Below are positions 2,644 to 45,046 of a stretch of DNA of 49,189 nucleotides, piece by piece. The stretch is from a virus (taxonomy: Duplodnaviria; Heunggongvirae; Uroviricota; Caudoviricetes). The DNA lies in the IMG/VR virus record IMGVR_UViG_3300045988_153230; one strand, 5' to 3'. The translations under genes were made by a program, and so were the position numbers. The notes under the pieces are model-generated. The model saw only the letters and a program-made list of their open reading frames with translations, was not told the origin of the DNA and searched no databases. Every line of letters starts with the position of its first letter. Within the stretch, counting starts at the first letter, position 1.

Positions 2644-2658
2644 ACCACGTTACGTGGT
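2644..2658. promoter_or_regulatory. Operator-like palindrome ACCACGTTACGTGGT upstream of repA
   Basis: Perfect 7-1-7 palindrome of the same ACCAC-N5-GTGGT type as the sites flanking the CI-like repressor gene. Confidence 0.4.
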
Positions 2659-2788
2659 TTTAAGAGAACTCTACCACAACACTTTCGGTCATGCACGAAG
2701 TCTCTCACTGATCGAACGATAATCCACCAGTAAAAGGATCTAAATTGGATCTCGTTTTGCGAGCATCATACTACTGGCCTAACTCCAG

Positions 2789-3343
2789 TCAATGATTCCC
2801 AGCCGGAAACCTGCGGTAAAGCGTGGATAAGGTAACATCGAAGATAATCGCTATCCGCTTACGTGAAACACCATTCGCAATAAGCCTTCCGATCTGTTCC
2901 CATTGCTCTGGTGCCAGCTTTGAGCGACGTCCTCCTATCCTGCCGTTAGCCCTTGCCACCGCCAATCCTGCACGCGTTCTTTCAATCATATTTTCCCGCT
3001 CCATCTCTGCGACTGCACTCAGCATCGTGTAGGCAAAGCGGCCAATTGAAGTGCTGATTTTTATCCCTTCCGTAATTGAAATAAACTCAATGTCGTTTGA
3101 TAAAAAATGGTTAAGTAAATCAACAAGATGAATCAGAGAACGCCCCATTCGGTCCAGCTTCCAGACAATAACCGTATCGCCCGGTCGTAACACCTTCAGT
3201 AGCTTATCAAGTCCTGGTCGTTTTGATTTAGCACCGGATATTTTATCTTCAAAAATCCGGTCACATCCTGAACTCCTGAGCGCCTCCAGTTGTAATTCCA
3301 AATTCTGGTCAAAAGTTGACACCCTCGCATAACCATATTGCAT
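2789..3343 (-). CDS. Serine DNA invertase, Gin/Pin/Cin/Hin family
   Basis: 184 aa; N-terminal GYARVSTFDQ with catalytic Ser, and C-terminal ...GRIGGRRSKL...VTLSTLYRR HTH, closely resembling Mu Gin/e14 Pin as I recall them. Adjacent to an invertible tail-fibre segment. Confidence 0.9.
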   Translation of the reverse strand: MQYGYARVSTFDQNLELQLEALRSSGCDRIFEDKISGAKSKRPGLDKLLKVLRPGDTVIVWKLDRMGRSLIHLVDLLNHFLSNDIEFISITEGIKISTSIGRFAYTMLSAVAEMERENMIERTRAGLAVARANGRIGGRRSKLAPEQWEQIGRLIANGVSRKRIAIIFDVTLSTLYRRFPAGNH

Positions 3344-3407
3344 ACTTTCTAAACCGCGATTGTTGCTAAAAGCGGGAAAAAATATCGTTCAGACGACACA
3401 GAGGCAA

Positions 3408-3433
3408 TTCGCAAAAACCTCGGTTTACAGGAA
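3408..3433. repeat. gix-like recombination site, left end of invertible segment
   Basis: Reverse complement reads TTCCTGTAAACCGAGGTTTTTGCGAA, matching my recollection of Mu gix (TTCCTGTAAACCGAGGTTTTGGATAA) over its first 20 nt. Inverted relative to the site at 6461..6486. Confidence 0.8.
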
Positions 3434-4420
3434 ACGGTAAACAGGGCTGGTAACGCCGTGCAAAAAAATGGCGATACCTTGTCCGGTGGGCTTACTTTTG
3501 AAAATGACTCAATCCTTGCCTGGATTCGAAATACTGACTGGGCGAAGATTGGATTTAAAAATGATGCTGATGGTGACACTGATTCATACATGTGGTTTGA
3601 AACAGGCGACAACGGCAATGAATATTTCAAATGGAGAAGCAAACAAAGCACCACAACAAAGGACCTGATGAATCTTAAATGGGATGCTTTGTATGTTCTT
3701 GTTAAAGCTCTTTTCAGCAGTGAAGTAAAAATATCGACAGTCAATGCACTGAGGATATTTAATTCATCTTTTGGTGCTATTTTTCGCCGTTCTGAAGAAT
3801 GCCTTCATATCATCCCTACCCGAGAAAATGAGGGGGAAAATGGCGATATAGGGCCACTACGCCCCTTTACGCTTAATCTCAGAACTGGTCGCATAACTAT
3901 GGGGCATGGTCTGGATGTTACAGGAGATATATTTACAAACCGTTTTTTAATTAACAGCAGTACAGGCATGTGGATTAATATGCGTGACCAGAACGTTATT
4001 ATGGGACGTAATGCGGTATCCACTGATGGTGCTCAGGCTTTGCTCCGTCAGGACCATGCCGACCGCAAATTTATGATTGGCGGTCTGGGAAATAAGCAAT
4101 TTGGCATCTACATGATTAATAACTCAAGGACAGCCAATGGTACCGATGGTCAGGCGTACATGGATAATAACGGTAACTGGCTTTGTGGTGCGCAAGTTAT
4201 TCCCGGCAATTATGGCAATTTTGACTCACGCTATGTGAGAGATGTCCGACTTGGCACACGTGTTGTTCAATTGATGGCGCGTGGAGGGCGTTATGAAATA
4301 GCCGGACACGCACTTACCGGATTAAGAATTATTGGTGAAGTTGATGGCGATGATGAAGCTATCTTTAGGCCGATACAAAAATACATCAATGGCACATGGT
4401 ATAACGTCGCACAGGTGTAA
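3408..4420 (+). CDS. Alternative tail-fibre C-terminal segment (Sv'-like), silent in this orientation
   Basis: Frame is open through the gix site and encodes LGLQETVN, the same peptide encoded at the gix site inside the tail-fibre gene (EYLGLQETVN). No own start; the ORF track's start at 3458 is GTG. Followed directly by a Tfa paralog. Confidence 0.7.
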
Positions 4421-4951
4421 ATGATGCAGCATTTAAAAAATATTAAGTCTGGAAATCCTAAAACGAAAGAACAATATCAGCTAACAAAGAATTTTGATGT
4501 TATCTGGTTATGGTCCGAAGACGGTAAAAACTGGTATGAGGAAGTAAATAACTTTCAGGACGACACCATAAAGATTGTATACGACGAAAATAATATTATT
4601 GTTGCCATAACCAAAGATGCCTCAACGCTTAATCCCGAAGGCTTTAGTGTCGTTGAGATTCCAGATATAACAGCCAATCGTCGTGCCGATGATTCAGGGA
4701 AGTGGATGTTTAAGGATGGATCTGTAGTTAAACGGATTTATACGGCAGACGAACAGCAACAACAAGCCGAATCACAAAAGGCCGCATTGCTTTCCGAAGC
4801 TGAATCAGTCATCCAGCCGCTGGAACGCGCTGTCAGGTTGAATATGGCAACAGACGAGGAACGCACACGACTGGAAGCATGGGAACGCTACAGTGTTCTG
4901 GTCAGCCGTGTGGATACGGCAAATCCTGAATGGCCACAAAAGCCTGAATAA
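4421..4951 (+). CDS. Tail fibre assembly protein (Tfa/U'-like), alternative copy
   Basis: 176 aa; N-terminus [25 protein letters not shown]... is paralogous to the convergent ORF 4980..5513. Typical position after a tail-fibre C-terminal segment. Confidence 0.85.
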
Positions 4952-4956
4952 AAATT

Positions 4957-4976
4957 AAGGCCCGCTATCGGGCCTT
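4957..4976. terminator. Bidirectional hairpin between convergent Tfa genes
   Basis: AAGGCCCGCTATCGGGCCTT perfect stem-loop between the two convergent Tfa ORFs. Confidence 0.5.
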
Positions 4977-4979
4977 GTC

Positions 4980-5513
4980 TCATTCCGGTTTTTCTGGAAA
5001 CGTTACTGGCAGGATGGAGGTATCTGTAGATTCGACTTTCTGTGCATATAGCATCCACTCGGTTAATTTCTGTTTATTCTCATCGGAAATGATGCCCAGC
5101 CGTAGCTGTGAGTCCCACAGTTGGGTTTTATCCCTGACAAGTTGCAACAGGCTTTGCTTTTCATTCTCTGCCTGCTGCCTCTGTTCTTCCTCGGTGTAAG
5201 TTCGCTTTATCACTACGCCATCTTTGAACATCCATTTACCCGAAATATCAGCCCGGCGATTTGCTGTAATATCAGGTAATTCAACGACGCTTGCGCCTTC
5301 CGGATTAATTGCTGAAACATCCTTTTCAATACAAATAATAACGCCGTTACGGTCATAGACCATTTTCAATGTGTCTGGCTGGAAATTCTTTTGTTCCTCA
5401 TACCAGTTTTTTCCATCATCTGAATAAAGCCATTTGATGTTAAATTGCTTTGTTAGCTGGTATTGCTCTTTTGTTTTAGGGTTGCCAGCAGTAATGTTTT
5501 TTAAGTGCATCAT
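4980..5513 (-). CDS. Tail fibre assembly protein (Tfa/U-like), expressed copy
   Basis: 177 aa; [24 protein letters not shown]...; immediately downstream of the tail-fibre gene. Confidence 0.85.
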   Translation of the reverse strand: MMHLKNITAGNPKTKEQYQLTKQFNIKWLYSDDGKNWYEEQKNFQPDTLKMVYDRNGVIICIEKDVSAINPEGASVVELPDITANRRADISGKWMFKDGVVIKRTYTEEEQRQQAENEKQSLLQLVRDKTQLWDSQLRLGIISDENKQKLTEWMLYAQKVESTDTSILPVTFPEKPE

Positions 5514-5515
5514 CG

Positions 5516-7834
5516 TTAAATACTCCCCGCGTTATACCACGTCCCATTAATGCAATACTGAATTGGCCTTGCCTGAGTTGTATCAATTAATTCATCACGG
5601 TTTCCGTTAACTGAACCCGTAACGACATAACCTGACCTGTCAGACCAGCCGGGACCATTCCATGTCTGAACAGATGACAGACCGCCCAGGCGAATACCTG
5701 TAATAAACCTTGAGTTACATTCTGCCTGCGTATATGCACCAACATCCCCCGCAGAGGGTTTGCGGGTTGTGGTGTAAAACTCTGACCAGTTAGCTTCAAA
5801 GCCATAACCATCACGCGCTGAACGATAAAAGATACCGCCGTTCTTATAATTCACGCGGAACTGTACAGCAGGGCAACTCCCCGCATTCATATTAAAGTGG
5901 AGGATTAATGTCGATGCACCACTGATATCTGCATCATAAACACCGCTATTCCAGTTCCAGCCAACAGCTTTATCATTTGCAACCCTGCTTCCTGTTTGCC
6001 CTAAAGCAAATGCAGGCTGCTGGTTTTTCGTATTGTAGTCTCTTCGCCAGCCAGGAGCATAAGCATCACCATGATTAATATAAGTGAATTGAGCGTTAGT
6101 GATTCCGCCGCCGCTGGACGTACTCGGAGTAGTAACGCGTATGGTCATTGCGCCGCGAGTGCCAATAACTTCCACCACAGCACCTGCAAGACAAATATTT
6201 CCGCAACCTGTATCTGTAATGACCTTATTATTTGCATAAGCCCATGAGCCTTTGCACATCCAGTAAGGATGGTTAAATGCTCCCTGACTCTCCAGCCACG
6301 AAATAAATTGCGCGGTTGTCCAGACCTGACTATCGCCACCAATATTCAGCCATGGGCTGTATGCGCGGCAGGCACCAATATTTTTGGTGAAGGTATCTTT
6401 TCCTGGAATATCTGCGCCGTTCTGGTTTTTCTGTAATGCGCCAGAAGCCTGATTTACCGTTTCCTGCAAACCGAGGTATTCGATAACGGCAGCAACGGTC
6501 GATTTCGCAAGAATATCCCGCCCGACTTTTGTCAGGGTTGCCAGGCTGGCGACATCATTCCCCGTAAAATACGGAAACTTGTCTGCCGAAGTAGCAAGCC
6601 CGGCCAGCGCCGTCAGGGTGGCATCTTTCGGTTGCTTACCCGCAAGCGCGTTAGTCATGGTGGTCGCAAAATTCGGGTCGTTGCCCAACGCCGCAGCCAG
6701 CTCGTTTAGCGTATTCAGTGCGTCAGGCGACGAGTCCACGAGGGCAGCGATCGCAGCCATAACATAAGCCGTGCTTGCGATCTGAGTATTGTTAGTACCT
6801 TTTGGCGCAGTTGGTGTTGTTGGTGTTCCGGTCAGCGCAGGACTGTTTAAGGGCGCTTTCTTGTTCGTTTCATCCATTACCGCCTTAACAGCTTTTGGTG
6901 TCGCAGCCAGCGTTTCAGACGTGCTGTTAGTGGCACTACTGAGCTGAGTTATTCCCCTTACAGTCAGTGAAGCTACAGGCACATTTGTTATCTGCTCCCA
7001 CGAATGCGTGTGATTGGACGGAGCCTTTCCGGCCGCAAGATCATACGCTGCCTTAACAGCCTTTGGTGTTGCTGCTAGCGTTTCAGACGTGCTGTTGGTG
7101 GCACTACTGAGCTGAACAATCCCTTTTCGCGCTGTGGTAGCGTCCTGTGCGGTGTATTTAGCGTTAGCAAGGTCATATGCTGCCTTAACAGCCTTAGGCG
7201 TCGCAGCAAGCGTTTCAGACGCGCTATTGGTGGCGCTGCTAAGTTGAACAAAGCCTTTTGAGGTTAAAGTTGCATCAGGATGATTACGTGATTGCTCATG
7301 TTTCACAATGGCTTGCTTAAGCCGCTTTGCTGAAACAGCAAGGGAATCATCTGTACCTGCCTCAATTTCTTGTTCATTAGCAAATCTTGCCACCCCAACA
7401 ACAGTTTCGGTCGCGGGAGGATTAATAAACTCAATATCACCAAATGTAATATTTTTAGTATCAAGAGTCTTAATTGCTATATCACTTGATATTAAAGCGA
7501 TAGTAGATGATGCTTTATTTATTATTGCTTGTTCTTGTGAGTATACAGCAAACAACGCCCCCTTATTCGTATACAATCCTATTGTATGGACAACATACTC
7601 ATCTTTACTATCATCCTTCGCTGTTACATGAATTGTATCAGGGGAAACAACTTTGCCACCTATTGTGGTAAGTCGTTTTATTTCGTTTGTTATATTTGTT
7701 TGTGAGGTTGACGTGACATAATATCTACTACCTAAACCAACAGAAACAATCTCAACTTTATTTGTTCCTGTTTTGTTGGCATTAACCAACTCCTGACGCC
7801 CGGCGTCAGTCATCGTAAATAATAATTTACTCAC
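5516..7834 (-). CDS. Tail fibre protein (P2 gpH / Mu S-like), constant N-terminal part plus invertible C-terminal part
   Basis: 772 aa; N-terminus MSKLLFTMTDAGRQEL resembles P2 gpH N-terminus (first codon is GTG). Contains three ~70-bp internal repeats (about 6885..7250) and the gix site at 6461..6486 inside the coding sequence. Confidence 0.85.
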   Translation of the reverse strand: MSKLLFTMTDAGRQELVNANKTGTNKVEIVSVGLGSRYYVTSTSQTNITNEIKRLTTIGGKVVSPDTIHVTAKDDSKDEYVVHTIGLYTNKGALFAVYSQEQAIINKASSTIALISSDIAIKTLDTKNITFGDIEFINPPATETVVGVARFANEQEIEAGTDDSLAVSAKRLKQAIVKHEQSRNHPDATLTSKGFVQLSSATNSASETLAATPKAVKAAYDLANAKYTAQDATTARKGIVQLSSATNSTSETLAATPKAVKAAYDLAAGKAPSNHTHSWEQITNVPVASLTVRGITQLSSATNSTSETLAATPKAVKAVMDETNKKAPLNSPALTGTPTTPTAPKGTNNTQIASTAYVMAAIAALVDSSPDALNTLNELAAALGNDPNFATTMTNALAGKQPKDATLTALAGLATSADKFPYFTGNDVASLATLTKVGRDILAKSTVAAVIEYLGLQETVNQASGALQKNQNGADIPGKDTFTKNIGACRAYSPWLNIGGDSQVWTTAQFISWLESQGAFNHPYWMCKGSWAYANNKVITDTGCGNICLAGAVVEVIGTRGAMTIRVTTPSTSSGGGITNAQFTYINHGDAYAPGWRRDYNTKNQQPAFALGQTGSRVANDKAVGWNWNSGVYDADISGASTLILHFNMNAGSCPAVQFRVNYKNGGIFYRSARDGYGFEANWSEFYTTTRKPSAGDVGAYTQAECNSRFITGIRLGGLSSVQTWNGPGWSDRSGYVVTGSVNGNRDELIDTTQARPIQYCINGTWYNAGSI
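6461..6486. repeat. gix-like recombination site inside tail-fibre gene, right end of invertible segment
   Basis: TTCCTGCAAACCGAGGTATTCGATAA, near-identical core to the site at 3408..3433 in inverted orientation. Confidence 0.8.
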
Positions 7835-7864
7835 GCTTAATTCCTTGAATTAACAAATTGCGAA

Positions 7865-8446
7865 TTAGCACTCGCCAATTAATCGTACATAGGACACAGG
7901 CTGACAAGCACCAACAATACCAACACCACCAGAAACATTGGCAGCTTGCGAAAATGTAAATAATGTTCTTGCCGACTTTGCGCTCTTGATACTTCTTAAC
8001 GTATCTTCCAACATCTCTTTCGAAGGAACGGCACCATCAAAAGAGTTAATCGAAGCAACAATTGAGGCTGTATATGGTTCGCCAGGTGGTGATGTTTCAA
8101 ACCATTCTGTTATATTTACCTCTCCACCCAAGCTATTTACTACATCTTCAACCGCTGCCCTTGTACCCTTTATTCGCTTTGTTCGTATTATTGATTTAAA
8201 AACAGAACGCTTTAACGATACAGGCCAACTATCTCTCCATGTATCAGCATTCCATTGCCAAGCTAAATGATCGAGAACAACTGAGTCCAGGTTATCAACA
8301 ACACTATATATTTCTGTCTTATATATTAAATTGTTAATTGCTTGTAGTTCATCATCGATAGCTTTCGACATAGCTATCACGTTGGGATCTCTAGCTAAGT
8401 TAGGAGGTAAAACATCCAACAAGCTAACATTAAAGATATCAGCCAT
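7865..8446 (-). CDS. Phage tail protein I (P2 gpI-like)
   Basis: 193 aa beginning MADIFNVSLLDVLPPNLARDP..., positioned between baseplate J and the tail fibre as in P2. Confidence 0.7.
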   Translation of the reverse strand: MADIFNVSLLDVLPPNLARDPNVIAMSKAIDDELQAINNLIYKTEIYSVVDNLDSVVLDHLAWQWNADTWRDSWPVSLKRSVFKSIIRTKRIKGTRAAVEDVVNSLGGEVNITEWFETSPPGEPYTASIVASINSFDGAVPSKEMLEDTLRSIKSAKSARTLFTFSQAANVSGGVGIVGACQPVSYVRLIGEC

Positions 8447-9563
8447 CCTCTAACCCCGCATACTGGCAATTTATATTTCTCTCTCTGGCGACCTGCGTCT
8501 CTCCAACCACAGTAAATACAGGACTTGATATTTCTAATCTTTTAGCCCCAGCATTTTTTAAACGTTGAATAATTTCATCTGGATTTATATCTCTTCCCAT
8601 AACCGAACGTTGCCATTGTTTATACTCATCAATAGCTTTCTCAACCTCACTTTGAATTAAAGTTGTTCTGTTTTTGTCCGATGAGTTAATCCAGTATTTA
8701 ATTATTATATCGTATTCAATGCTCTCTGGTTTCTTAACAAGAACTTTATCTGTGAATGGTCGAATATTAGTTGCAGAGAGAACGCTATTTATCTGCTCTA
8801 ATAGTTCATCAGAAGGTATATCTCCGTTCTCTAACAAAGAACGGATTTCTACAGTTCCGGGCGATGGTGTATATACATTCACATCTTTTATATTCTGATT
8901 GGCTGTTCTTGTCCAATATTTATAAGAATCCTCCGGCCCTGCTGTAGACAGTTTTTCCGGCGACAGTTTTATTCTTTCAGCATAATTATCATCTGACTCT
9001 GTATCAGCACCAGAATTAGATGTTGTTAGATTCCTTACGCTGGAAACATACGGCAACGGAGTCACCAACTCGTTTATTTGCCCAGGTAAAAAGCCATTCC
9101 CCGATAAGCCAGGTATAACAGCATATCCTGAGACTGTACCAACTGTTTTCCCAGCTGGTATTTCCAACAAAACATCTGTTTGGAAAATAACACTATTTCC
9201 AGTTGAAATTTGAGTGCCAGCAGGTATTGTATATATCCCCGATAATTTTGTTGACAGCTTAAACTCAAATGTAGTCAAGGCAGATTGAGCTTCCAGCCTA
9301 GGCGTATCCGTCAGATAGCCTATATGGTCGAGATATTCACCCCCACCATATGTAAGAAGGTTTTGTTTTGCAGAAAAATCGATAGCTTTTCTTTGCTGTA
9401 TAATAATCTCACACAATGACAAGATGAATAATCTACGTGGATCAGCAGGTGCTAATGTTTCACCTGTTATACTCTCAAAAGCCCTGATTGAACGAGTTGT
9501 TATATCAGTCGGGTTAGAATCTGCGAAAGTAATATCTGGCAAACCACCACGCGGCAACGTCAT
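8439..9563 (-). CDS. Baseplate protein J-like
   Basis: 374 aa, size and position (between W and I) as for P2 gpJ / T4 gp6-type baseplate wedge proteins. Confidence 0.7.
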   Translation of the reverse strand: MTLPRGGLPDITFADSNPTDITTRSIRAFESITGETLAPADPRRLFILSLCEIIIQQRKAIDFSAKQNLLTYGGGEYLDHIGYLTDTPRLEAQSALTTFEFKLSTKLSGIYTIPAGTQISTGNSVIFQTDVLLEIPAGKTVGTVSGYAVIPGLSGNGFLPGQINELVTPLPYVSSVRNLTTSNSGADTESDDNYAERIKLSPEKLSTAGPEDSYKYWTRTANQNIKDVNVYTPSPGTVEIRSLLENGDIPSDELLEQINSVLSATNIRPFTDKVLVKKPESIEYDIIIKYWINSSDKNRTTLIQSEVEKAIDEYKQWQRSVMGRDINPDEIIQRLKNAGAKRLEISSPVFTVVGETQVARERNINCQYAGLEDG

Positions 9564-10961: not shown

Positions 10962-10963
10962 AA

Positions 10964-28921: not shown

Positions 28922-29544
28922 CAGCACACCTCCCCAGCCAGCAATGCGGATACAAATCCGATATAGCTGCCATTATCATCAACATAACGAGACACCGCGC
29001 AGTCAAAACGATCCGCTTCCTCATCCGTTGCCGGGATTTTATGACCTCCAAATGACAGGTACTGAACTTTTACGCCTGATTTGGCCTCATCCTTCTCAAA
29101 TGGGATATCCATACCCTCTGTGTCATCGTAGACCGCCGCACTCAATAAGTTATCCAGTTCGCGCTGAGTAAAACCAATTGAGTCCAGAGCAAAATCATCG
29201 GCCGCAAGATCTGCAAGTTCCGCGCTTAACAACTCTTCATCCCAACCAGCATTCAGCGGAATACGGTTGTCGGCCAGACGATATGCCTTCTTCTGATTCT
29301 CCGTTAGCCCTTCCAGAACAATGCAGGGAACGTCATCCATCCCCAACTGAGTGGCCGCAGCAATTCGACCATGACCAGCAATTACAACGTTGTTCTCGTC
29401 TATCAGGATCGGATTAGTCCATCCGTACTCCTGTATGCTGGCAACAATCTGATCTACCTGCTCCACGGAGTGTGTGCGAGCGTTCTTTTCATAACCAATC
29501 AACACAGAAAGTGGTAAAGAAACCACATTAAGATGTTTTGTCAT
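28921..29544 (-). CDS. ParB/Srx-like nuclease-domain protein, paralog 2
   Basis: 207 aa; ...KNARTHSVEQVDQIVASIQEYGWTNPILIDENNVVIAGHGRIAAA...; clear paralog of 25664..26254. Confidence 0.7.
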   Translation of the reverse strand: MTKHLNVVSLPLSVLIGYEKNARTHSVEQVDQIVASIQEYGWTNPILIDENNVVIAGHGRIAAATQLGMDDVPCIVLEGLTENQKKAYRLADNRIPLNAGWDEELLSAELADLAADDFALDSIGFTQRELDNLLSAAVYDDTEGMDIPFEKDEAKSGVKVQYLSFGGHKIPATDEEADRFDCAVSRYVDDNGSYIGFVSALLAGEVC

Positions 29545-34169: not shown

Positions 34170-34503
34170 TTCATAAAGCAACAAATTACGCGGTAATCGC
34201 TTAACGCAGTTTTACTACGTTAAATGAAACACTACACCCAGTTACCACCTAAAACAAGGTTTTCCCACAAAAAAACCTTCATATCGTGGTTAATTGATCG
34301 ATAAAAAAGCAATGTTCAACTTTTTACCAACCGAACATCCCGACCAGGACTTCCATAATATTCGCCGATATGCCACTGCTTAAGTTGAGTAATCTTCTCC
34401 AACATAACTCCCATAGAGTCCAGTTTCTGCCATGTTTTCGGTTGTATGTGCTTCATTACCCGCTCTGAATATCTGAATACTGCTCGTAGCCTCGCTAAAT
34501 TGC

Positions 34504-35695: not shown

Positions 35696-35697
35696 AG

Positions 35698-38452: not shown

Positions 38453-38508
38453 ATATTTTCGATGTTCCCGATGTCTACACACCATCAAAACAGCTCAAAA
38501 TGACACTT

Positions 38509-38886: not shown

Positions 38887-38889
38887 TGT

Positions 38890-39222
38890 TCAGATCTCCC
38901 GTATCGTGACGGGATAAAGCGCCTCTACCTGCTTTTTCTTCATGATGTAGACGTCTGTTCGCACACCTTTAGTGTCGACACAATCAATCGTCCCATCGTC
39001 ATAAAACACCATGAAATCAAGTTTATAAACGACACCACCTGGCAGATGAAAAGGCACCTGCATAAGAAACGTCACAACGCGGCCAGCTTTTCTCAGTAGC
39101 TTCAGTTCGCAGTAGTAATCAGCCTCTTTTTTGCTATCAAAAGCGATATCATCGACAACCGTTTTTTTATTGCCGTATTTGCTTTTCCTGGTCGCTGGTT
39201 TGCGAAAGCCGGTATATCTCAT
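38890..39222 (-). CDS. DUF1064-like phage protein
   Basis: 110 aa; ...KSKYGNKKTVVDDIAFDSKKEADYYCELKLL... pattern. Confidence 0.5.
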   Translation of the reverse strand: MRYTGFRKPATRKSKYGNKKTVVDDIAFDSKKEADYYCELKLLRKAGRVVTFLMQVPFHLPGGVVYKLDFMVFYDDGTIDCVDTKGVRTDVYIMKKKQVEALYPVTIREI

Positions 39223-39623
39223 TTGGTATCCCCTGGTACTTCACCAAGACTAAGATCAAACCCAATTTCGTCTTTAACTGACTGCGGCAACAGCTCCCAC
39301 GTCTGCGCACACAAAAATTCATCGGTGCCATAACGCTCAACAAAGCGAGCACAATTACTCAGGGGAGGGTGACGAACGGCAATATGCGGAGGCACGCGCC
39401 CACCACCAGGCACAACACCGCGATGATGTGGTGCGCACAACCCAAAGCTATGGAAGTGGCAATTCTCATCAACGCTGCCGTAATCAGGATCGTGATGTAG
39501 CTCCGTCCACAGCTCTGGATTCTCAATTTCACGGCCATCAATAATGCAAGCTATGCAACCCACGTGAGTGAGCACCGCTTGTATATAAAGTTTCTCTTTC
39601 TTCGTTGGCGTACGTCCGTTCAT
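39219..39623 (-). CDS. Hypothetical protein, Cys/His-rich
   Basis: 134 aa with ...HVGCIACIIDGRE...HHDPDYGS...CHFHSFGLCAPHH...; possible metal-binding/HNH-like fold, unverified. Confidence 0.45.
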   Translation of the reverse strand: MNGRTPTKKEKLYIQAVLTHVGCIACIIDGREIENPELWTELHHDPDYGSVDENCHFHSFGLCAPHHRGVVPGGGRVPPHIAVRHPPLSNCARFVERYGTDEFLCAQTWELLPQSVKDEIGFDLSLGEVPGDTK

Positions 39624-39856
39624 CAGCGCCCCTTACCATTGATAAAGAGGTTGAACTCGTTGATTAACTGGACATACATGCTTCTGGCCGCATAGTTCTT
39701 TGCCAGCTCTTTACGGGATGAGATCCCGCAAAACTCACGCAGAATCACAGAGGCCTCAGAACTGTTTGAAACGTTCTTCCCTGTTTTACTGGTCAGAAAG
39801 CGCCAGAATTGGGGATTCTGGCAATGCATCGCAGCACCGCGAACATAACTACTCAT
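39623..39856 (-). CDS. Hypothetical small protein
   Basis: 77-codon ORF with start/stop overlaps in the early operon. Confidence 0.45.
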   Translation of the reverse strand: MSSYVRGAAMHCQNPQFWRFLTSKTGKNVSNSSEASVILREFCGISSRKELAKNYAARSMYVQLINEFNLFINGKGR

Positions 39857-40368
39857 TGATGGCCCCCGTCATTTCTGGTGCTTTTCACCGTGCGGCTTCT
39901 TAAAAACCTGCCATCACGAACAACAGACACTTCTCGTTTACCCAACCTCATTTCACGGCGGTAACATTCAGAAAATGCCTCGTCCGGCATCATATAAATG
40001 CGACGCTTCGCCTCCGTATCCAGAAGGGAACGGCTTGGGGTTACATATAAAAACGACTCATCAATAGGGACAAAACCACGAGCAAGAATTGCTGGCAGAA
40101 TGCCAGGAAGAACGCAGAAAACAGCTCCACGATGCAGCAACATCTGGTACTCCATGACCTCCGTTATCCCCGTGACGACTGTTACGGTGTCACGTCTGTT
40201 ACGGCTGGCAACCAGTCGCTGCACACGTCCAATTTTCTGATCTACAGATAGATGTTTGCTATCGTTATCAATATGATCGATAACAAATCCTTTAATCGTT
40301 TGATCAAGGTAGTGCACCACCTGCGATTGAATCTGGTGATTATCACCAAAGAAGGCCAGAATCATCAT
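39853..40368 (-). CDS. Hypothetical protein
   Basis: 171-codon ORF, ATGA overlaps on both sides. Confidence 0.45.
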   Translation of the reverse strand: MMILAFFGDNHQIQSQVVHYLDQTIKGFVIDHIDNDSKHLSVDQKIGRVQRLVASRNRRDTVTVVTGITEVMEYQMLLHRGAVFCVLPGILPAILARGFVPIDESFLYVTPSRSLLDTEAKRRIYMMPDEAFSECYRREMRLGKREVSVVRDGRFLRSRTVKSTRNDGGHQ

Positions 40369-40859
40369 TCCTCAAGCCTCCCAAGTGCTGAACGCCGGGC
40401 GTTGCTAATCTCCTTATGAATCAGCTCGATATCGCTGGAATCTTTATTCTTAAGCTCCAGCACGGCAATCGCATCACGAACCTCTGAAACGGTTACGTGT
40501 GAGTGTTTCCAGCGAGCAATGAATCGCGGACCGCGTAGATTGCAACGCTCCGCAGGCATCCCCAGCTCAGAGAAAACCGCTTTCAGCCTTGATAAGCAGT
40601 TAACAGGGAGATTCCCTTTGATCTTGTTCTGCCGAACCGATGTGCCATCGCTACGCTGGCGCTGACGTTCGGCAAAATCTGCCGCCCATTGCTGGACGTT
40701 AATCCGGCCTTCCGAATACGCCACCAGCAGCGTCAGGTTATCCGCACGAGGGAATCTCTCGAAGCGATACCAGGCACCAATCAGTGATGACGTAAAGCCA
40801 AACTTTCTGGCAACACCAATTTGGCCTCCATTTTCGTCAACCCACTCCTGAAAGGTCAT
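40365..40859 (-). CDS. Putative Cro/CII-like regulator with N-terminal HTH
   Basis: 164 aa; GQIGVARKFGFTSSLIGAWYR resembles an HTH; first gene of the operon divergent from the CI-like repressor. Confidence 0.45.
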   Translation of the reverse strand: MTFQEWVDENGGQIGVARKFGFTSSLIGAWYRFERFPRADNLTLLVAYSEGRINVQQWAADFAERQRQRSDGTSVRQNKIKGNLPVNCLSRLKAVFSELGMPAERCNLRGPRFIARWKHSHVTVSEVRDAIAVLELKNKDSSDIELIHKEISNARRSALGRLEE

Positions 40860-40878
40860 TTAACGAACTCCAATTAAA

Positions 40879-40996
40879 ACCACGATATGTGGTATTAAAA
40901 CCACATATCGTGAGTTTTTCAATGGGCGAAACAAAAAATAACCTTCTATTTGTGGTCCACCTCTCGTCTTACCATGTGAAAACCACTAAATGTGGT
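40879..40996. promoter_or_regulatory. Divergent promoter/operator region with three ACCAC-N5-GTGGT-type sites
   Basis: ACCACGATATGTGGT (40879..40893), ACCACATATCGTGAG (40900..40914, forming a 12-bp inverted repeat with the first), ACCACTAAATGTGGT (40982..40996), between the divergent early operon and the repressor gene. Confidence 0.55.
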
Positions 40997-41033
40997 AATG
41001 TATAAATAACCCACCATTCACGATTGATGAGAC

Positions 41034-41690
41034 ATGAAAAGCAACGACGAGAACATCAAGAAAGAAATAGGTCTGCGCATTCAGACTCTACGGAAACAAT
41101 CCGGCATGACTGCCGGAGATCTCCAGCAAGTCACTGGAATAGGCTTAAGCACCTTGCAGAACTATGAGGCCGGATTAAGACAACCATCTATACCTGCCAT
41201 CAAGAAAATTGCGCACGCCCTGAAAGCATCAGCGCCTTATATCGCGTGCTTAACAGATAACCCGTTCCCACCCCAGAATACTAACGCTCCTGTTATTCCT
41301 GGGCTTGTAGCTATAAAAAATGACATAGCATCGCACGCCGGAGAAAAGCCAGTGCTGGCGATAGAACAGGAGATTCTACGAAGCAAGAACATCAACCCAT
41401 CGTCTCTGTCAGTTCTCCAGAGCAACGATGAGTTAATGTCACCAACAATATCCCCAGGCTCCCAAGTCCTGATTGATACAGACGATACAGAGATTCATGA
41501 GGGGATCTATGCCCTTGAAGACAGAAATGGCCTGGTTGTTTTGAGGCACTGTAGAGTCATACCGGGTGACAATGCTGTTATGCTGTCAACCGAAAGGGAT
41601 GCTGAAATGAACACTAAGCATCTGAATAACGAGGAATTTAAGCGTTATAAAGTTCTTGGCCGCGTAGTTAGTGTTGTCAACTGGTTATGA
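41034..41690 (+). CDS. CI-like repressor, HTH plus S24 (LexA-like) peptidase domain
   Basis: 218 aa; N-terminal HTH (...IGLRIQTLRKQSGMTAGDLQQVTGIGLSTLQNYEAG...), C-terminal S24-like (...MSPTISPGSQVLID...FKRYKVLGRVV...). Followed by a hairpin (GCACGGCGAAAGCCGTGC). Confidence 0.8.
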   Translation: MKSNDENIKKEIGLRIQTLRKQSGMTAGDLQQVTGIGLSTLQNYEAGLRQPSIPAIKKIAHALKASAPYIACLTDNPFPPQNTNAPVIPGLVAIKNDIASHAGEKPVLAIEQEILRSKNINPSSLSVLQSNDELMSPTISPGSQVLIDTDDTEIHEGIYALEDRNGLVVLRHCRVIPGDNAVMLSTERDAEMNTKHLNNEEFKRYKVLGRVVSVVNWL

Positions 41691-41732
41691 TACACAGCAC
41701 GGCGAAAGCCGTGCATTTCTACGCTCAAAAAA

Positions 41733-41747
41733 ACCACGCTTTGTGGT
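41733..41747. promoter_or_regulatory. Operator-like palindrome ACCACGCTTTGTGGT
   Basis: Same ACCAC-N5-GTGGT architecture, upstream of ORF 41783..42157 and the par genes. Confidence 0.45.
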
Positions 41748-41782
41748 TTTGACAACATGTGAAAGTATAAAAGAGGCTACGC

Positions 41783-42157
41783 ATGGAATTACATACAGCC
41801 AATAAAAACGAAACTCTGATCACTGCTGGAATCGAAATCCAAGCGTTGAACATAGCGATTGAGTGTATGTTATGCCAAATCATTGATAATGAGAAAGATA
41901 TCGACTGGATAGAATCTATCCTTCATCTGGCATCAGAACAAAAAGTCTGCCTCAAAACGGCCTTACAATACGATGTGCCAGCGGTATCGAAGCTGTGCCA
42001 GCCATTGATGGCATATAACAGGGCTATTATTTCTGTATGCCTCATGATTCTTGATGAAAACACCCCTCTTAGCGACCGCTCAGAAGCTGCTCTAACCCTC
42101 TCACGTAAACAGCGACAGCTAGCAAATCAACTGATATCAACGATAGCTGACCTCTGA
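41783..42157 (+). CDS. Hypothetical protein
   Basis: 124 aa, followed by hairpin AGCGGGCTAACGCCCGCT (42162..42181). Confidence 0.5.
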   Translation: MELHTANKNETLITAGIEIQALNIAIECMLCQIIDNEKDIDWIESILHLASEQKVCLKTALQYDVPAVSKLCQPLMAYNRAIISVCLMILDENTPLSDRSEAALTLSRKQRQLANQLISTIADL

Positions 42158-42195
42158 CTGCAAGCGGGCTAACGCCCGCTTATATGATTATAGAT

Positions 42196-42284
42196 TTATA
42201 TAATTATATAAAACGCTTTTCATCCGCCAAAAAGTTGGTTATGCTTACCTCGTTCTATAAATATAGATTTATAGAATTATATAA
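42196..42284. repeat. AT-rich palindromic repeats upstream of parA (candidate centromere/operator)
   Basis: Perfect 16-bp palindrome TTATATAATTATATAA (42196..42211) and variant TTATAGAATTATATAA (42269..42284), plus ATAGATTTATA direct repeats; a further copy sits between parA and the RHH gene (42962..42974). Confidence 0.5.
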
Positions 42285-42307
42285 CCAAACACATGGAGTC
42301 TCGACAA

Positions 42308-42961
42308 ATGACTATCTCTGTAGGTATTTTCAACGGAAAAGGCGGCGTAACCAAATCAACAATTGCCCGTGCTTTAGCAGTTGCTTATGCAAAGGCTGGC
42401 TGGAATGTATGCCTGATCGATATGGATGTGCTTAACGGAACGGTAACGCGTTGGGTACAACGCAGAATGGCCAACAATATCGAACCAGCAATCGCGGCGC
42501 AGCCGTGCGGCACACCATCACAAGTCCAGAAAATCATCGAATCAGAAATATACGACCTGGTTATCGTCGATGGCGGTGCCTACGCATCTGAATCAGTACC
42601 GAAGCTCTCTGAATTTCTGGATATGGTTATTTTGCCAACCAGATTCTCTACCGATGACCTGGAAACCACCGTTAACACAGCTCACGGCATCGTTAAAAAG
42701 GGTGTACCAATCAAGAAAATTTGCATGGTGTTTTCCGGCGCGGCTGAAAACGAAGCTGACTATATTGAAGCCCAAGAGTACCTGGCTAATACGCCATACT
42801 TTGTTGTCGATAAGTACATTCCCCACAAGCCAGCTCTGAGCAAAGCTCAGGATAAGGGCTTAAGCCTCATTGAGTGCTCATACGTTGCGCCACGCAAAAA
42901 GGCAGACGACGTTATTCAGGGGATTATCAACCAGCTTGAGGCTCTGACTACTGCCGCGTAA
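42308..42961 (+). CDS. parA: ParA-family partition ATPase (type Ib, ParF-like)
   Basis: ~217 aa from ATG at 42308 (GGAG RBS): MTISVGIFNGKGGVTKSTIA... deviant Walker A near the N-terminus. Confidence 0.8.
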   Translation: MTISVGIFNGKGGVTKSTIARALAVAYAKAGWNVCLIDMDVLNGTVTRWVQRRMANNIEPAIAAQPCGTPSQVQKIIESEIYDLVIVDGGAYASESVPKLSEFLDMVILPTRFSTDDLETTVNTAHGIVKKGVPIKKICMVFSGAAENEADYIEAQEYLANTPYFVVDKYIPHKPALSKAQDKGLSLIECSYVAPRKKADDVIQGIINQLEALTTAA

Positions 42962-43004
42962 TATATAATTATAGTTTTATAGATTTATATAAGAGGGGAT
43001 ACAC

Positions 43005-43253
43005 ATGGCCGCACCATCAAAACCACCAAAGAAGAACAGCAAAGGCGTACCGCCATCGATCGAACAACCGCAGGTTTTCGACCCGACTGAAACGCCAACC
43101 AGAACCAAATCAGGTGGGGCACAAATGGCGTTTAACGTCGACCCTGAATTTAAACGCGAGTACAAAACGTTCGCCAGCTCAATGGATATGTCATTGAAAG
43201 AAGTGCTGACAAAATCTTTTGAGTTACTCAAGGCTCAATACAACCAGAAGTAA
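43005..43253 (+). CDS. Ribbon-helix-helix centromere-binding protein (ParG-like)
   Basis: 82 aa; Pro/Lys-rich flexible N-terminal tail and C-terminal ...MAFNVDPEFKREYKTFASSMDMSLKEVLTKSFELLKAQ... with RHH-like beta-alpha-alpha pattern; directly downstream of parA. Confidence 0.65.
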   Translation: MAAPSKPPKKNSKGVPPSIEQPQVFDPTETPTRTKSGGAQMAFNVDPEFKREYKTFASSMDMSLKEVLTKSFELLKAQYNQK

Positions 43254-43503
43254 GAGAAGGTGACGGCCTCCAGCGCCAACTGTTGGCCGTCGCGACACAA
43301 CAAGGGGAATTTGTTATGTCCGAGCAACAATATACACGGTTACTAAAAACTCGTCTAATAGACCTCAAACGGCTGCAAGCTGGTCGCTTATTTGCCCTGC
43401 TATCCACCAGGCCAGAATGGGTACGTGAAGCAGTTCTGAAAGGCTTAATGCGCTCAAGCGTTTAAATTCAACCATAAAAAAGGCCCCCGAAGGGGCCTAA
43501 TCG

Positions 43504-43626
43504 CTACTTGCTGCTAATGTTTATCGTCACATTCAGAGCGTTATCAGTAATCTTCCAACCCTCCCCATGTGGCGTAAACAAAGCTCCAGTAACAACGATA
43601 AAAATACACATGTAGTATTTTTTCAT
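43504..43626 (-). CDS. Small hydrophobic protein (40 aa), candidate type I toxin-like peptide
   Basis: ATG at 43626: MKKYYMCIFIVVTGALFTPHGEGWKITDNALNVTINISSK; a bidirectional hairpin (GGCCCCTTCGGGGGCC, ~43478..43500) follows on the minus strand. Confidence 0.4.
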   Translation of the reverse strand: MKKYYMCIFIVVTGALFTPHGEGWKITDNALNVTINISSK

Positions 43627-43940
43627 TGTGTGGCCCTTACAGGCCGTTTCACGGCATCCCCACCGACGAAAATGACGCGAGAGCAAGCACGCTGTTTGTG
43701 CCTGCGTGGTACGGCAAGTGGATAATCCTTTCCTGAAAGTCAGTGCCCGGGTGCGAATCGGCGGAAAGGCCCCAAGCCATATTACACGTCATACCCTTCA
43801 TAATGAAGGAATAAAAAACGCTTTTATTACATAAGATTACACGTAAATAAGTTAAAAACCTTCATTTTGCATGAGCTAATGAGCTAAATTTTTTTATATG
43901 AATAGTGGACTATTCACCTCAGTTGGGTAAGAATGTAGTT

Positions 43941-44044
43941 GCTGTTTGTGCTTGCGTGGTTGTATTAGTACAACGACGTTATGCTGAAAGGACCGCGAAT
44001 CCGATCAGCACGAAAGAACCGTCCTCAAAAGGACGGTTTTTTTG
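43941..44044 (+). ncRNA. Candidate small RNA with intrinsic terminator
   Basis: Begins with GCTGTTTGTGCTTGCGTGGT, a 19/20 copy of 43691..43710 (the putative 5' leader region of the small ORF on the other strand), and ends in hairpin CCGTCCTCAAAAGGACGG plus T7 (44019..44044). Confidence 0.35.
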
Positions 44045-44597
44045 TTTCTCCCCCTTCCTTCCCAAATGATTCAAATGTTAATGAGAGTGAATCATTTGAT
44101 ATGTTCGATTTAGCGCCGTTATCGACCCAATTTCTGTATGCTTCATCACAACAGTACCTTACAGCAGTTGGAGTAACAGGGATGCCGCCCCCAAATGAGA
44201 ATCCCATTGAGCTAATGCTAACTCTTTCGAATGGCCTATTTCTCAATGCTTCAAACCCCTTGCTATTAAAGTAACGCAGCATCAGAGGTAAAAGGTTATC
44301 CTCGTCCTGACTGATTGTTCCAGGGAAAAAGTAGTAACCATAACGGTTAAATTCGGGAATAAGATTTTCTACCAATGACATGAAATTCACTGGAGTAATA
44401 TTAAGGGCTGTGAAAGCACCAAAAAGGGCGTCAACTGTTAATACAGACTGCCCGTTCTCTATCTTTGTCCATGCGTTTGGTGTTTTTCCAGCAGCTTGAG
44501 CCAGCACTCCTTGATGCACACCTCTTTCTAGCCTAAGTTCTTTTATGATCATTAGGTGAATTGTTGAAAAACATGAGTTTTTTGACTGTTCAATCAT
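44025..44597 (-). CDS. HTH-domain protein with uncharacterised C-terminal domain
   Basis: 190 aa; N-terminal XRE-like HTH (...IKELRLERGVHQGVLAQAAGKTPNAWTKIENGQSVLTVDALFGAF...); C-terminal ~110 aa unrecognised. Confidence 0.55.
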   Translation of the reverse strand: MIEQSKNSCFSTIHLMIIKELRLERGVHQGVLAQAAGKTPNAWTKIENGQSVLTVDALFGAFTALNITPVNFMSLVENLIPEFNRYGYYFFPGTISQDEDNLLPLMLRYFNSKGFEALRNRPFERVSISSMGFSFGGGIPVTPTAVRYCCDEAYRNWVDNGAKSNISNDSLSLTFESFGKEGGETKKPSF

Positions 44598-45046
44598 TTT
44601 TTATCCCCATACTGAATTTTTTCTTGTTCCCGACTTTAACAAAATTCCACAACTCAGGACTGATTGATTCCCTACAGGAACTATACATTCCCATTTTTAG
44701 CATATCAAGAAAATTAAAAGCCCCGCATTCAAACCCACACTATGTGGTTTAGTCTGTTAAAATCCCTCTGTATTGACATAAATGCGCCATTGGTGGACAC
44801 TTTCCGAGCCGTAGCAAAATCTACGGTCGGGATTGGAACCCCGATAATCATCATGGCGCATACCGCGTTAGCGGTTTTTTTATGCGTAAAGCACTGCTAC
44901 ACCCAAATTATGGTGGGGCGTGCGGGGGAGTCGTAAGACTCGCCGGATTCCATGGTGACCGGTAGTTCCAACCCTGTACGTCTCACCACCCAATGATTGG
45001 AACCAGACGGTGGTGAGTATCCTTAACCTTTAAGGGAACTATCACC

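Follow-up and report, generated by a model that had tools for sequence, protein, structure and literature searches.

The window considered here, meaning the whole 49,189-nt stretch of DNA that was analysed, carries the gene for a CI-like repressor on the plus strand, divergent from a leftward early operon that starts at 40859 on the minus strand. It also contains an IncFII-type repA gene, a par locus, holin/lysis genes, and an operon with the isrK-C4-icd-ant arrangement of the P1 immI type. Among these genes lie copies of the palindrome ACCAC-N5-GTGGT, which a preliminary description of the sequence had suggested might be dispersed operators of the repressor; we refer to them by the names given in Table 1. 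We found no literature on this phage-plasmid family.

Table 1. Positions and descriptions of the sites, promoters, genes and RNAs discussed in the text.
Feature	Position	Strand	Description
repA	1630..2466	-	IncFII-type; PF02387, E = 1e-43
Candidate antisense RNA against repA leader	2493..2605	+	two stem-loops; the second is an intrinsic terminator (2567-2600)
OrepA	2644..2658	none	exact palindrome ACCACGTTACGTGGT; about +101 to +115 relative to the conserved repA-leader promoter
Conserved repA-leader promoter	2765..2792	-	TTGACT-16-TATGAT; predicted from sequence
Site B	34276..34290	-	ACCACGATATGAAGG; asymmetric form as Site A
First gene of leftward early operon	40365..40859	-	164 aa, phrog_7452; function not known
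O1	40879..40893	none	exact palindrome ACCACGATATGTGGT; about -6 to +9 of the predicted early promoter
Predicted early lytic promoter	40894..40922	-	-35 TTGAAA (40922->40917), 17-nt spacer, -10 TTTAAT (40899->40894)
O2	40900..40914	none	ACCACATATCGTGAG; fills the -35/-10 spacer of the predicted early promoter
Site A	40942..40956	-	asymmetric hemi-site ACCAC-N5-GAAGG, then a T-rich tract
O3	40982..40996	none	exact palindrome ACCACTAAATGTGGT
CI-like repressor gene	41034..41690	+	218 aa; N-terminal HTH_3, C-terminal sub-threshold S24 similarity
Odown	41733..41747	none	exact palindrome ACCACGCTTTGTGGT
124-aa gene	41783..42157	+	phrog_7632; function not known; nearest gene to Odown
Oant	44734..44748	none	CCCACACTATGTGGT; one mismatch
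immI-like operon	44773..46416	+	isrK-C4-icd-ant arrangement, P1 immI type
isrK promoter	44773-44801	+	TTGACA-17-GACACT; predicted from sequence
isrK-like RNA	44808-44881	+	
C4 antisense RNA	44906-44993	+	Rfam RF01695, 84.3 bits
63-aa ORF	45047-45238	+	
ORF6N/Rha antirepressor gene	45235-46416	+	

Exact matches to the palindrome number four in the window (OrepA, O1, O3 and Odown) against 0.03 expected, and none of 100 dinucleotide shuffles of the window reached at least four; two degenerate copies, O2 and Oant, bring the total to six. At its full length of about 21 bp the motif reads AAAACCACG-N3-CGTGGTTTT. When a weight matrix trained solely on sites from relatives was applied to the window, the six sites scored 24.2-30.6 bits and the next best position 12.3, with a mean maximum of 8.9 bits in shuffled windows. 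The possibility that the motif is equally common in coding DNA did not hold: ORFs cover about 89% of the window, and five of the six sites are intergenic. The sixth, Oant, touches only an ORF at 44742-44936 that overlies the isrK and C4 RNA genes and is without annotation in the RefSeq relative; none of the six lies within a credible gene. Three further one-mismatch matches (at 7655, 11685 and 29501, with 0.66 expected) fall within long genes, score at most 6.7 bits and look like chance occurrences. The preliminary description had credited five sites with identical architecture, which is correct for the four exact copies; O2 departs from it because its right half, GTGAG, carries two mismatches, its left half being perfect. 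The variant that it had placed near the antirepressor operon at 44735-44749 is present, but one base further to the left.

Three of the sites lie, as had been described, in the divergent promoter region beside the CI-like repressor gene. O1 and O2, spaced 21 bp apart, flank the -10 element of the predicted early promoter on both sides, the -10 itself forming the linker between them. This promoter is offered as a prediction because the consensus promoter scan did not list it, its -10 element having T rather than A at position 2; eight lineages, including Serratia, nonetheless share the TTG of the -35, the placement of the -10 between O1 and O2, and the spacing of 21 bp. The right half of O3 overlaps a candidate extended -10 (TGG+TAATGT, 40993-41001) that would belong to the promoter of the repressor gene. 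All three sites are kept in seven lineages, and their overlap with both divergent promoters concerns promoters read from sequence only. Between O2 and O3, centred at about -62 of the early promoter, lies the asymmetric Site A, which is kept in all relatives including Serratia. Its counterpart, Site B, which seven relatives share, starts a conserved block of about 100 bp upstream of the holin/lysis genes.

The relatives compared came from Salmonella, Citrobacter (two species), Yokenella and K. aerogenes, and have repressors 61-67% identical to the one in the window. All carry O1, O2, O3 and Odown, and every one whose repA region was recovered carries OrepA as well; by lineage, OrepA is conserved in L002, L013, L016, L017 and L018, and in Serratia the repA-proximal site is reduced to a half-site. 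Across lineages the half-sites are invariant while the 5-bp spacers vary freely (variable columns, 2/50 in half-sites vs 20/25 in spacers; Fisher p = 1e-11), and among near-identical E. coli copies substitutions are confined to spacers and flanks. Because of this pattern, the idea that the six sites act like protein-binding operators is supported.

The palindrome reported downstream of the repressor gene is likewise real and exact. Odown stands 19 bp past the terminator hairpin of the repressor gene (41697-41714) and 36 bp ahead of the ATG of the 124-aa gene, which has terminator hairpins on both sides; no canonical promoter could be assigned at Odown. The site near repA presents a more mixed picture: it has the same half-sites as O1 and O3 and is kept in relatives, but it does not overlap the only conserved promoter, lying instead about 100 nt downstream in the leader. 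That promoter is retained in Salmonella, Citrobacter and Serratia relatives regardless of the upstream gene, whereas the -10-like hexamer adjoining OrepA (TATGAT) is not conserved, reading TATGAA or TAAGAA in relatives. OrepA sits between the conserved promoter and a CopT-like hairpin, itself conserved, that faces the candidate antisense RNA, and it might act as a roadblock or on a second promoter. The candidate antisense RNA and repA leader show four compensatory pairs in five sequences, and although no Rfam CopA match was obtained, we regard the RNA as a candidate analogue of CopA/CopT. The open frame of repA extends up to 2607; its true start is likely the ATG at 2466 (278 aa), as in most annotated relatives. 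No ORF occurs between the invertase gene (which ends at 2789) and repA, copB is likewise unannotated in the relatives, and no second replication initiator was found among annotated relatives, repA being the only replicon found.

Oant precedes the TTGACA of the isrK promoter by a constant 24 bp; this distance holds in three upstream contexts unrelated to one another and likewise in L014/L018. The site corresponds to positions -36 to -22 of a candidate extended -10 promoter (TGT+TAAAAT, 44755-44763), which a protein bound there would be expected to block. Its occurrence is lineage-specific: the E. coli lineage and L014/L018 have it, whereas L002/L016 lack it; C4 RNA was also found in L003, L014, L016 and L018.

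Two readings in which the palindromes are not phage operators deserve consideration. They might be parS-like centromere sites of the adjacent ParA system, bound by its small 82-aa partner protein (43005-43253) or by the 124-aa protein; one site does immediately precede the cluster formed by the 124-aa gene and parA, and the dispersed palindromic centromeres of N15 offer a model. Yet the par genes have separate iterons of their own with an 8-bp period (TATAGATT/TTATATAA), one set immediately upstream of parA (42180-42292) and another ahead of the 82-aa gene (42961-43000), and Serratia has AT-rich repeats at the corresponding location; with a different iteron family filling both the parA upstream region and the parA-parB junction, a parS/sopC-like role was rejected. 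Three of the sites moreover fall precisely on core elements (-35, spacer, -10 and +1) of the predicted divergent switch promoters, and the 124-aa protein is acidic and poorly conserved (24-60% identity) whereas the motif is invariant, all of which makes a centromere function very improbable. We give equally little credence to the view that OrepA and Odown work as RNA leader or terminator hairpins that merely resemble the switch operators. Both lie in possibly transcribed regions, each could form a hairpin of 6-7 bp, and RNA hairpins, too, keep their stem while the loop varies; the stems, however, show no compensatory change, and across five loci and six lineages their sequence never varies and matches the operator half-sites, AAA/TTT flanks included. 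Compensatory changes do occur in two genuine RNA hairpins of the neighbourhood, the CopT-like stem and the terminator of the repressor gene. A larger O1-O2 hairpin returned by the terminator scan is absent as a conserved feature in relatives.

If the sites are operators, the question becomes which protein reads them. The CI-like protein has an HTH_3 domain (E = 4.5e-11; phrog_4, 'transcriptional repressor'), and among the 61-67%-identity relatives this domain is 83% identical against 54% for the remainder, with residues 12-49 invariant apart from positions 23, 28 and 31-33. Even homologues of only 29-36% identity retain the motif ST(L/I)QNYE, and their switch regions have ACYAC half-sites in the same layout. 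Among the homologues compared, none combined an altered recognition helix with altered sites and none showed a module swap, so the comparison is one of co-conservation rather than a true covariation test, and would be equally compatible with some other conserved DNA-binding protein, for instance the 164-aa early protein. That the reader is not, or not solely, the CI-like repressor, but this early protein or a different conserved HTH protein encoded by the element, is a possibility we consider unlikely, though less so than the two readings above. In lambda-type switches Cro and CI use common operators, and the 164-aa protein is a candidate Cro-type partner: its N-terminal 60 residues are its best conserved part (80% vs 70%) and look Cro-like by eye, while the asymmetry of Sites A and B hints at a second specificity. 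Against this, Pfam and PDB gave no match for the 164-aa protein, and neither did a fold comparison (AF2 model of pLDDT 63; no Foldseek hit below E = 3.5), the conserved 90-aa HTH gene has no such palindrome upstream, only the CI-like protein has full repressor architecture, and three of the sites are found at its own promoter, as is usual for an autoregulated gene. We therefore infer that the CI-like protein binds the sites.

Its C-terminal domain bears on how such a repressor might be inactivated. The Pfam S24 score is 20.0 bits, under the 23.3-bit cut-off; Leu134 aligns to the Ser of DDSM in an S24-annotated homologue, the nucleophile position, and Arg171 sits at the expected Lys position. 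The Ser-Lys dyad for RecA-stimulated self-cleavage thus appears to be missing, a call made from the alignment since the structure model of this domain is of low confidence and unreliable. As the protein seems to lack the catalytic serine, its inactivation probably proceeds via the antirepressor rather than by RecA-stimulated self-cleavage; the Leu at the Ser position fits induction of this kind.

Taken together, we judge it likely that the six sites are operators of the CI-like repressor in a lambda-type switch of this family of ~48-kb Enterobacterales phage-plasmids, with control extending to repA and the antirepressor. In the circuit we propose, a repressor dimer would read two ACCAC half-sites whose centres are one helical turn apart. 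Occupancy of O1 and O2 would turn off the early lytic operon, and O3, which overlaps the candidate -10 of the promoter serving the repressor gene itself, would provide negative autoregulation. Odown, 750 bp away behind the repressor terminator, might control the 124-aa gene or act as a looping partner. Repressor bound at OrepA would lower repA transcription, by roadblock or by occlusion of a weak second promoter, keeping copy number low in lysogeny, and inactivation of the repressor would release the replicon. At the isrK-C4-icd-ant operon, repressor on Oant would mask the -35 region of the candidate upstream extended -10 promoter, so that antirepressor transcription would rise once repressor is lost, a positive feedback.

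Several features of this arrangement recall known systems. Like lambda OR (OR1-OR2-OR3), the switch has a tripartite operator between divergent lytic (PR) and repressor (PRM) promoters, with two adjacent sites on the lytic promoter, one on the repressor promoter, and a distal site that could allow looping; it differs in that the repressor is probably not self-cleaving, the Cro counterpart is only a candidate, the conserved asymmetric Site A stands as an extra between O2 and O3, and the O1-O2 spacing is 21 bp. In IncFII plasmids (R1/R100), repA is governed by CopA antisense RNA and by CopB, a repressor of the repA promoter. The window shares with them the RepA family, a two-stem-loop antisense RNA candidate opposite the leader and, upstream of the antisense target, a putative site of transcriptional control, but has no copB gene; if the repA palindrome is a phage operator, the phage repressor may substitute for CopB.

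The analogy to P1-type dispersed operators drawn in the preliminary description stands in part. As in P1, operators are spread over a plasmid prophage, and the immI-type operon combines a C4-family antisense RNA, a small ORF and an antirepressor (c4, icd, ant); in P1 both C1 and c4 regulate the expression of Ant (PMC8201110), and here too the antirepressor would be under the main repressor, in addition to RNA. P1 C1, however, controls the lytic replicon repL and immI, not plasmid repA (PMC8546580), is of unrelated fold and architecture, and uses 22 asymmetric 17-bp sites (ATTGCTCTAATAAATTT) rather than the palindromes of a CI-like repressor (PMC8546580, PMC8201110); in the window, moreover, an isrK-like RNA precedes C4. 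A closer precedent than P1, by analogy the closest, is CB of N15/phiKO2, whose binding sites comprise three OR operators and a further two at repA; it reduces both repA transcription and copy number in N15, and is also without Ser/Lys (PMC4997575). Both systems are phage-plasmids in which the gene for an HTH repressor and the lytic operon point away from each other, with three operators in the region between them (immB in N15/phiKO2), further operators of the same type lie beside the plasmid replication gene, and a repressor without the RecA-cleavage Ser/Lys is induced by an antirepressor, as predicted here. N15 differs in being a linear plasmid with telomeres, in its large, multifunctional RepA in place of an IncFII-type initiator with a candidate antisense RNA, in its 16-bp operators with a T-A-N10-T-A motif, and in having two OL sites that overlap the predicted repA promoter rather than a single site about +100 in the leader. 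The proposed circuit would thus be a coherent new example of a kind already known from phages N15 and P1.

The exact palindrome ACCAC-N5-GTGGT occurs four times in the window (the sites OrepA, O1, O3 and Odown) against an expectation of 0.03, and none of 100 shuffles reaches four. The preliminary description had ascribed the same architecture to O2, which instead reads ACCACATATCGTGAG and carries two mismatches in its right half; the variant site that it reported near the antirepressor operon, Oant, does exist, with its coordinates corrected from 44735-44749 to those tabulated below. The extended motif is AAAACCACG-N3-CGTGGTTTT. With a weight matrix for which only sites from relatives served as training data, the six window sites reach 24.2-30.6 bits and everything else no more than 12.3; the mean maximum in shuffled windows is 8.9. 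ORFs cover 89% of the window, and five of the six sites are intergenic, the sixth touching only an ORF that runs over the isrK-like and C4 RNA genes; judged by scores and placement, the motif therefore does not recur at similar frequency inside coding regions, a possibility that had been raised earlier.

Sites, promoters and neighboring features of the window
Feature	Coordinates	Strand	Description
OrepA	2644-2658		exact palindrome, repA leader
O1	40879-40893		exact palindrome
O2	40900-40914		right half with 2 mismatches
O3	40982-40996		exact palindrome
Odown	41733-41747		exact palindrome
Oant	44734-44748		variant
Site A	40942-40956	-	ACCAC-N5-GAAGG
Site B	34276-34290	-	ACCAC-N5-GAAGG
164-aa gene	40365-40859	-	first early-operon gene
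CI-like repressor	41034-41690	+	218 aa
124-aa gene	41783-42157	+	
Putative early promoter	40922-40917 / 40899-40894	-	TTGAAA-17-TTTAAT
O1+O2 palindrome	40880-40913		34 bp
Second repressor-gene -10 candidate	41001-41006		TATAAA
par iterons	42180-42292; 42961-43000		
ryfA-family RNA	43476-43774	-	full-length, 134.6 bits
190-aa HTH gene	44025-44597	-	HTH_3/HTH_31
190-aa HTH gene promoter	44708-44680		TTGATA-17-TATAGT
Extended -10 candidate at Oant	44755-44763		TGT+TAAAAT
isrK-like RNA promoter	44773		TTGACA
isrK-like RNA	44808-44881		Rfam
C4 antisense RNA	44906-44993		Rfam
64-aa ORF	44742-44936		across both RNA genes
repA-leader promoter	2792-2765		TTGACT-16-TATGAT
Paired GATC sites	2735-2755	-	in small inverted repeat
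Leader hairpin	2600-2573		downstream of OrepA
Predicted antisense RNA	~2493-2605	opposite to repA leader	two stem-loops, intrinsic terminator
RepA start, probable	2466		ATG, 278 aa
RepA start, upstream	2607		ATG
Invertase/tail-fibre region	2789-4951		
GTGGT-N6-ACCAC	29501-29536		in ParB/Srx-like gene
Lysis-upstream block	34175-34300	-	~100 bp

The sites were compared across syntenic relatives with a repressor 61-67% identical to that of the window: Salmonella pAR-0407-1 (L002), two Citrobacter freundii elements (L016, L017), C. amalonaticus (L018), Yokenella (L014), K. aerogenes (L019), and an IMG/VR contig (L013). A Serratia plasmid (L003), with a 36% identical repressor and a lambda-like tail, shares the regulatory and replication module. 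Every 61-67% relative has O1, O2, O3 and Odown in matching positions, and OrepA is kept in all of these for which the repA region was recovered. Only 2 of 50 half-site columns vary, versus 20 of 25 spacer columns (Fisher p = 1e-11; the orthologous sites were initially located by motif search, and alignments confirm their positional orthology). In near-identical E. coli copies, all substitutions within 12 bp of a site hit the spacer or flank. At the sequence level, invariant half-sites with free spacers are characteristic of sites recognised by a dimeric protein. Were the sites instead RNA hairpins, their stems might be expected to behave like those of the real hairpins nearby, namely the terminator of the repressor gene and the repA-leader stem, which carry compensatory changes; the stems of the sites never vary, and we rejected this reading. 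Very probably, the lysis-lysogeny switch uses all six sites as protein-binding operators. For Serratia, ACCTC-N5-GAGGT was dropped as an altered operator because it has a single match; AACCAC half-sites, each with a weak partner, describe the sites there better.

Two other palindromes were noted. GTGGT-N6-ACCAC, within the first 15 codons of a ParB/Srx-like gene, comprises two weak matrix matches 21 bp apart and is kept in Salmonella (L002 36180-36215); since it encodes NVVSLPL, its conservation may be due to coding constraint. In the Salmonella/Citrobacter lineage (L002 18287-18304, L016 15509-15526, also L013 and L017), the conserved 90-aa HTH gene contains a perfect 18-bp palindrome, TCCACCACGCGTGGTGGA, of which the window yielded no copy.

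The CI-like protein is the likely reader of the sites, or one of their readers. It alone has a full repressor architecture (HTH_3, linker, and a C-terminal domain with sub-threshold S24 similarity), with residues 4-217 matching phrog_4 ('transcriptional repressor') and residues 110-214 matching phrog_6201 ('CI-like repressor'); PDB sequence searches gave only generic HTH matches, and the model of its C-terminal domain has pLDDT <50. Across the 61-67% relatives its HTH domain is 83% identical versus 54% for the remainder, and residues 12-49 are almost invariant. The motif ST(L/I)QNYE is retained down to 29% identity (Serratia, Enterobacter, Lelliottia), with ACYAC half-sites in an unchanged layout in the switch regions of these homologues. 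Among homologues down to this identity, no relative combines a changed recognition helix with changed half-sites: the single variant helix (P0041, SSIRNYE) still goes with ACYAC sites and so offers no discriminating case. No module swap was found either, by RepA co-occurrence in PLSDB or in the Lelliottia relative. The co-conservation of HTH domain and half-sites is thus consistent with the CI-like protein as reader, though non-discriminating. As for other proteins of the region, the 124-aa protein is acidic and fast-diverging, and the par proteins have iterons of their own. A Cro analogue sharing the sites could be encoded by the first early gene (164 aa), but sequence and structure searches lend this no support (the model of the 164-aa protein is poor, and a Foldseek search with it returned nothing). 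The par iterons themselves form 8-bp-period AT-rich clusters (TATAGATT/TTATATAA) upstream of parA and between parA and an 82-aa gene, and are likely the centromere and operator of a type Ib partition system.

At the switch, we infer the early and repressor-gene promoters from sequence. The -10 of the putative early promoter coincides with the 6-bp linker separating O1 from O2, so placed that O2 occupies the promoter spacer and O1 spans -6 to +9; the TTG of the -35, the promoter geometry and the 21-bp O1-O2 spacing are common to all 8 lineages (the Serratia -10 is TATCTT). With T at position 2 of its -10, this promoter escapes a consensus promoter scan of the window. The right half of O3 makes an extended -10 candidate for the repressor gene (TGG+TAATGT; TAAnGT in all relatives), so that occupancy of O3 would autorepress that gene; the second -10 candidate is less conserved. 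Odown lies 19 bp past the terminator hairpin of the repressor gene and 36 bp ahead of the 124-aa gene, which ends in a terminator of its own. No canonical promoter could be assigned at Odown, which may control the 124-aa gene or act as a distal looping site ~750 bp from O3. In the window lineage the O1 and O2 spacers are mutually reverse-complementary, and a scan flagged the resulting palindrome as a bidirectional terminator; it is not conserved in relatives and so is probably incidental.

OrepA lies at ~+101 to +115 from a repA-leader promoter that is kept even in Serratia despite a different upstream gene. The hairpin downstream of OrepA carries compensatory changes in L018 and L003, and the RNA predicted on the opposite strand has 39 pairs, 4 of them compensatory. 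The predicted layout follows the CopA/CopT logic of IncFII replicons, although the Rfam CopA model has no match in the leader and no copB gene was found in the window or in annotated relatives. No canonical promoter overlapping OrepA could be assigned; given that the -10-like TATGAT abutting it is not kept in relatives, the blocking of a second promoter is no more likely than a leader roadblock. Overall, we lean slightly toward OrepA lowering repA expression or copy number. No other replication initiator was found among annotated relatives; were repA the only one, its release upon induction could also supply lytic replication, in the manner of N15. In PLSDB this type of RepA co-occurs only with the ~48-kb family to which the window belongs, except for a 47% match in Buchnera; in the Lelliottia relative the repA upstream region is different and cannot be aligned. 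RepA probably starts at ATG 2466, as annotated in most relatives. The ORF is open up to ATG 2607, but its Pfam match begins at residue 52 and the extension overlies the CopT-like hairpin; the longer version is probably either an artefact of annotation or a leader ORF of the tap type. Just downstream of the leader promoter, paired GATC (Dam) sites kept in all relatives (three in Serratia) may make repA transcription sensitive to methylation or SeqA.

The promoter of the isrK-like RNA has its TTGACA exactly 24 bp downstream of Oant. This distance is constant among E. coli variants whose sequences further upstream are of three unrelated kinds, and it is the same in L014 and L018, where the site is ACCACAATGCGTGAT and the intervening 24 bp are only ~35% identical. 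The stretch from Oant to TTGACA holds an extended -10 candidate (TGG+TAGATT in L014/L018); measured from this candidate, Oant spans -36 to -22. This sequence arrangement suggests tandem promoters, the upstream one repressor-controlled; we give even weight to Oant repressing or not repressing such an upstream ant promoter. The L002 and L016 lineages lack Oant, so a repressor-antirepressor link is not universal. The nucleophile position of S24 peptidases is Leu134 in the CI-like protein (DDSM in an S24-annotated Pseudomonas homologue, DNSL in a Vibrio homologue), and no LexA box occurs in the regulatory regions, the single window match (18194) being at chance level; induction through the antirepressor would be the most economical reading.

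Several neighbors of this operon deserve mention. The 64-aa ORF across its RNA genes matches PHROG 'transcriptional regulator' families, and its equivalent in a relative matches Pfam Phage_ASH; such families may owe part of their membership to ORFs called wrongly across conserved RNA genes. The 190-aa HTH gene, divergent from the operon and with a good promoter, is present in part of the E. coli lineage only (other lineages have NinX, ryfA or nothing there), and its product could be a lineage-specific regulator of the operon. The ryfA-family RNA, also present in Yokenella L014, lies between the partition genes and this HTH gene.

Sites A and B represent an asymmetric conserved class, each followed by a T-rich tract (TTxTTTTTGT). 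Simple decay from operators does not account for them, as every relative keeps the 'bad' half CCTYC. Site A lies between O2 and O3, centered at ~-62 of the early promoter, and site B heads a block upstream of the holin/lysis genes that is nearly invariant despite differing downstream holin genes. This block contains TTGTTT-17-TAGTGT and a conserved hairpin (AACGTAG-TAAAA-CTGCGTT), with a strong intrinsic terminator ~100 nt downstream in relatives, and resembles the PR'/tR' late-promoter and antitermination unit of lambda; no Q-like gene was identified. A joint reading, which we regard as tentative and rather unlikely as a whole, would have the repressor replace CopB, the lone leader operator giving one antisense-RNA-controlled replicon two modes (low-copy plasmid maintenance, and lytic replication once repressor is gone), and the asymmetric sites reflect a further regulator or binding mode tying early and late transcription to the switch.

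The window, 49,189 bp long, is a complete or nearly complete phage-plasmid, with a myovirus-type tail, an IncFII-family RepA (PF02387, E = 1e-43), a ParA partition system, the CI-like repressor and an ORF6N/Rha antirepressor; Rfam also matches a tRNA and the ryfA-like RNA. A Cin/Gin-type serine invertase (Resolvase + HTH_7) adjoins oppositely oriented tail-fibre and tail-fibre-assembly genes, which by analogy with P1 and Mu suggests an invertible host-range segment. The regulatory region is 97-99% identical to three plaque-forming Yersinia phages isolated on Y. pestis EV76 (vB_YpM_39/41/44) and to ~60 non-mobilizable plasmids of 46-52 kb from E. coli, E. albertii, E. fergusonii and K. aerogenes, among them the 48.5-kb plasmid of the quality-control strain E. 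coli ATCC 25922. Members of the ~48-kb family, carried by at least 63 records in PLSDB, are common in E. coli and also occur in Salmonella, Citrobacter, Klebsiella and Yokenella; a scan of GTDB species representatives found no relative. The plasmid pSLy3 was rejected as a member, as it belongs to the unrelated SSU5-type 110-kb group. Literature searches on regulation in this family (vB_YpM_39/41/44; phage-plasmid with IncFII and repressor/operator) found nothing.

The site map amounts to a complete regulon proposal of six operators, three promoters and one replicon, in an element whose palindromic switch is of lambda/N15 type, its immI operon of P1 type and its replicon of IncFII type. P1 is the model for the antirepressor operon, given the isrK-like and C4 RNAs directly upstream of the antirepressor as in immI, where Ant is regulated by C1, c4 RNA and Icd (PMC8201110). 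It is also the source of the dispersed-operator idea: the C1 operators are 22 dispersed asymmetric sites, with repL under the control of one (PMC8546580). The immB system of N15/phiKO2 comes closest as a precedent; its CB protein binds three OR operators and two OL operators over a predicted repA promoter, represses repA and lowers copy number, all without a Ser/Lys dyad (PMC4997575). The kind of arrangement is thus already known; new here are the family, the operator sequence, and the placement of OrepA in the leader of a copB-less replicon with predicted antisense control. If true, this would be a second independent case, beside N15/phiKO2 and on an IncFII-type replicon, of a prophage repressor setting plasmid copy number, with a bearing on how induction alters gene dosage in phage-plasmids.
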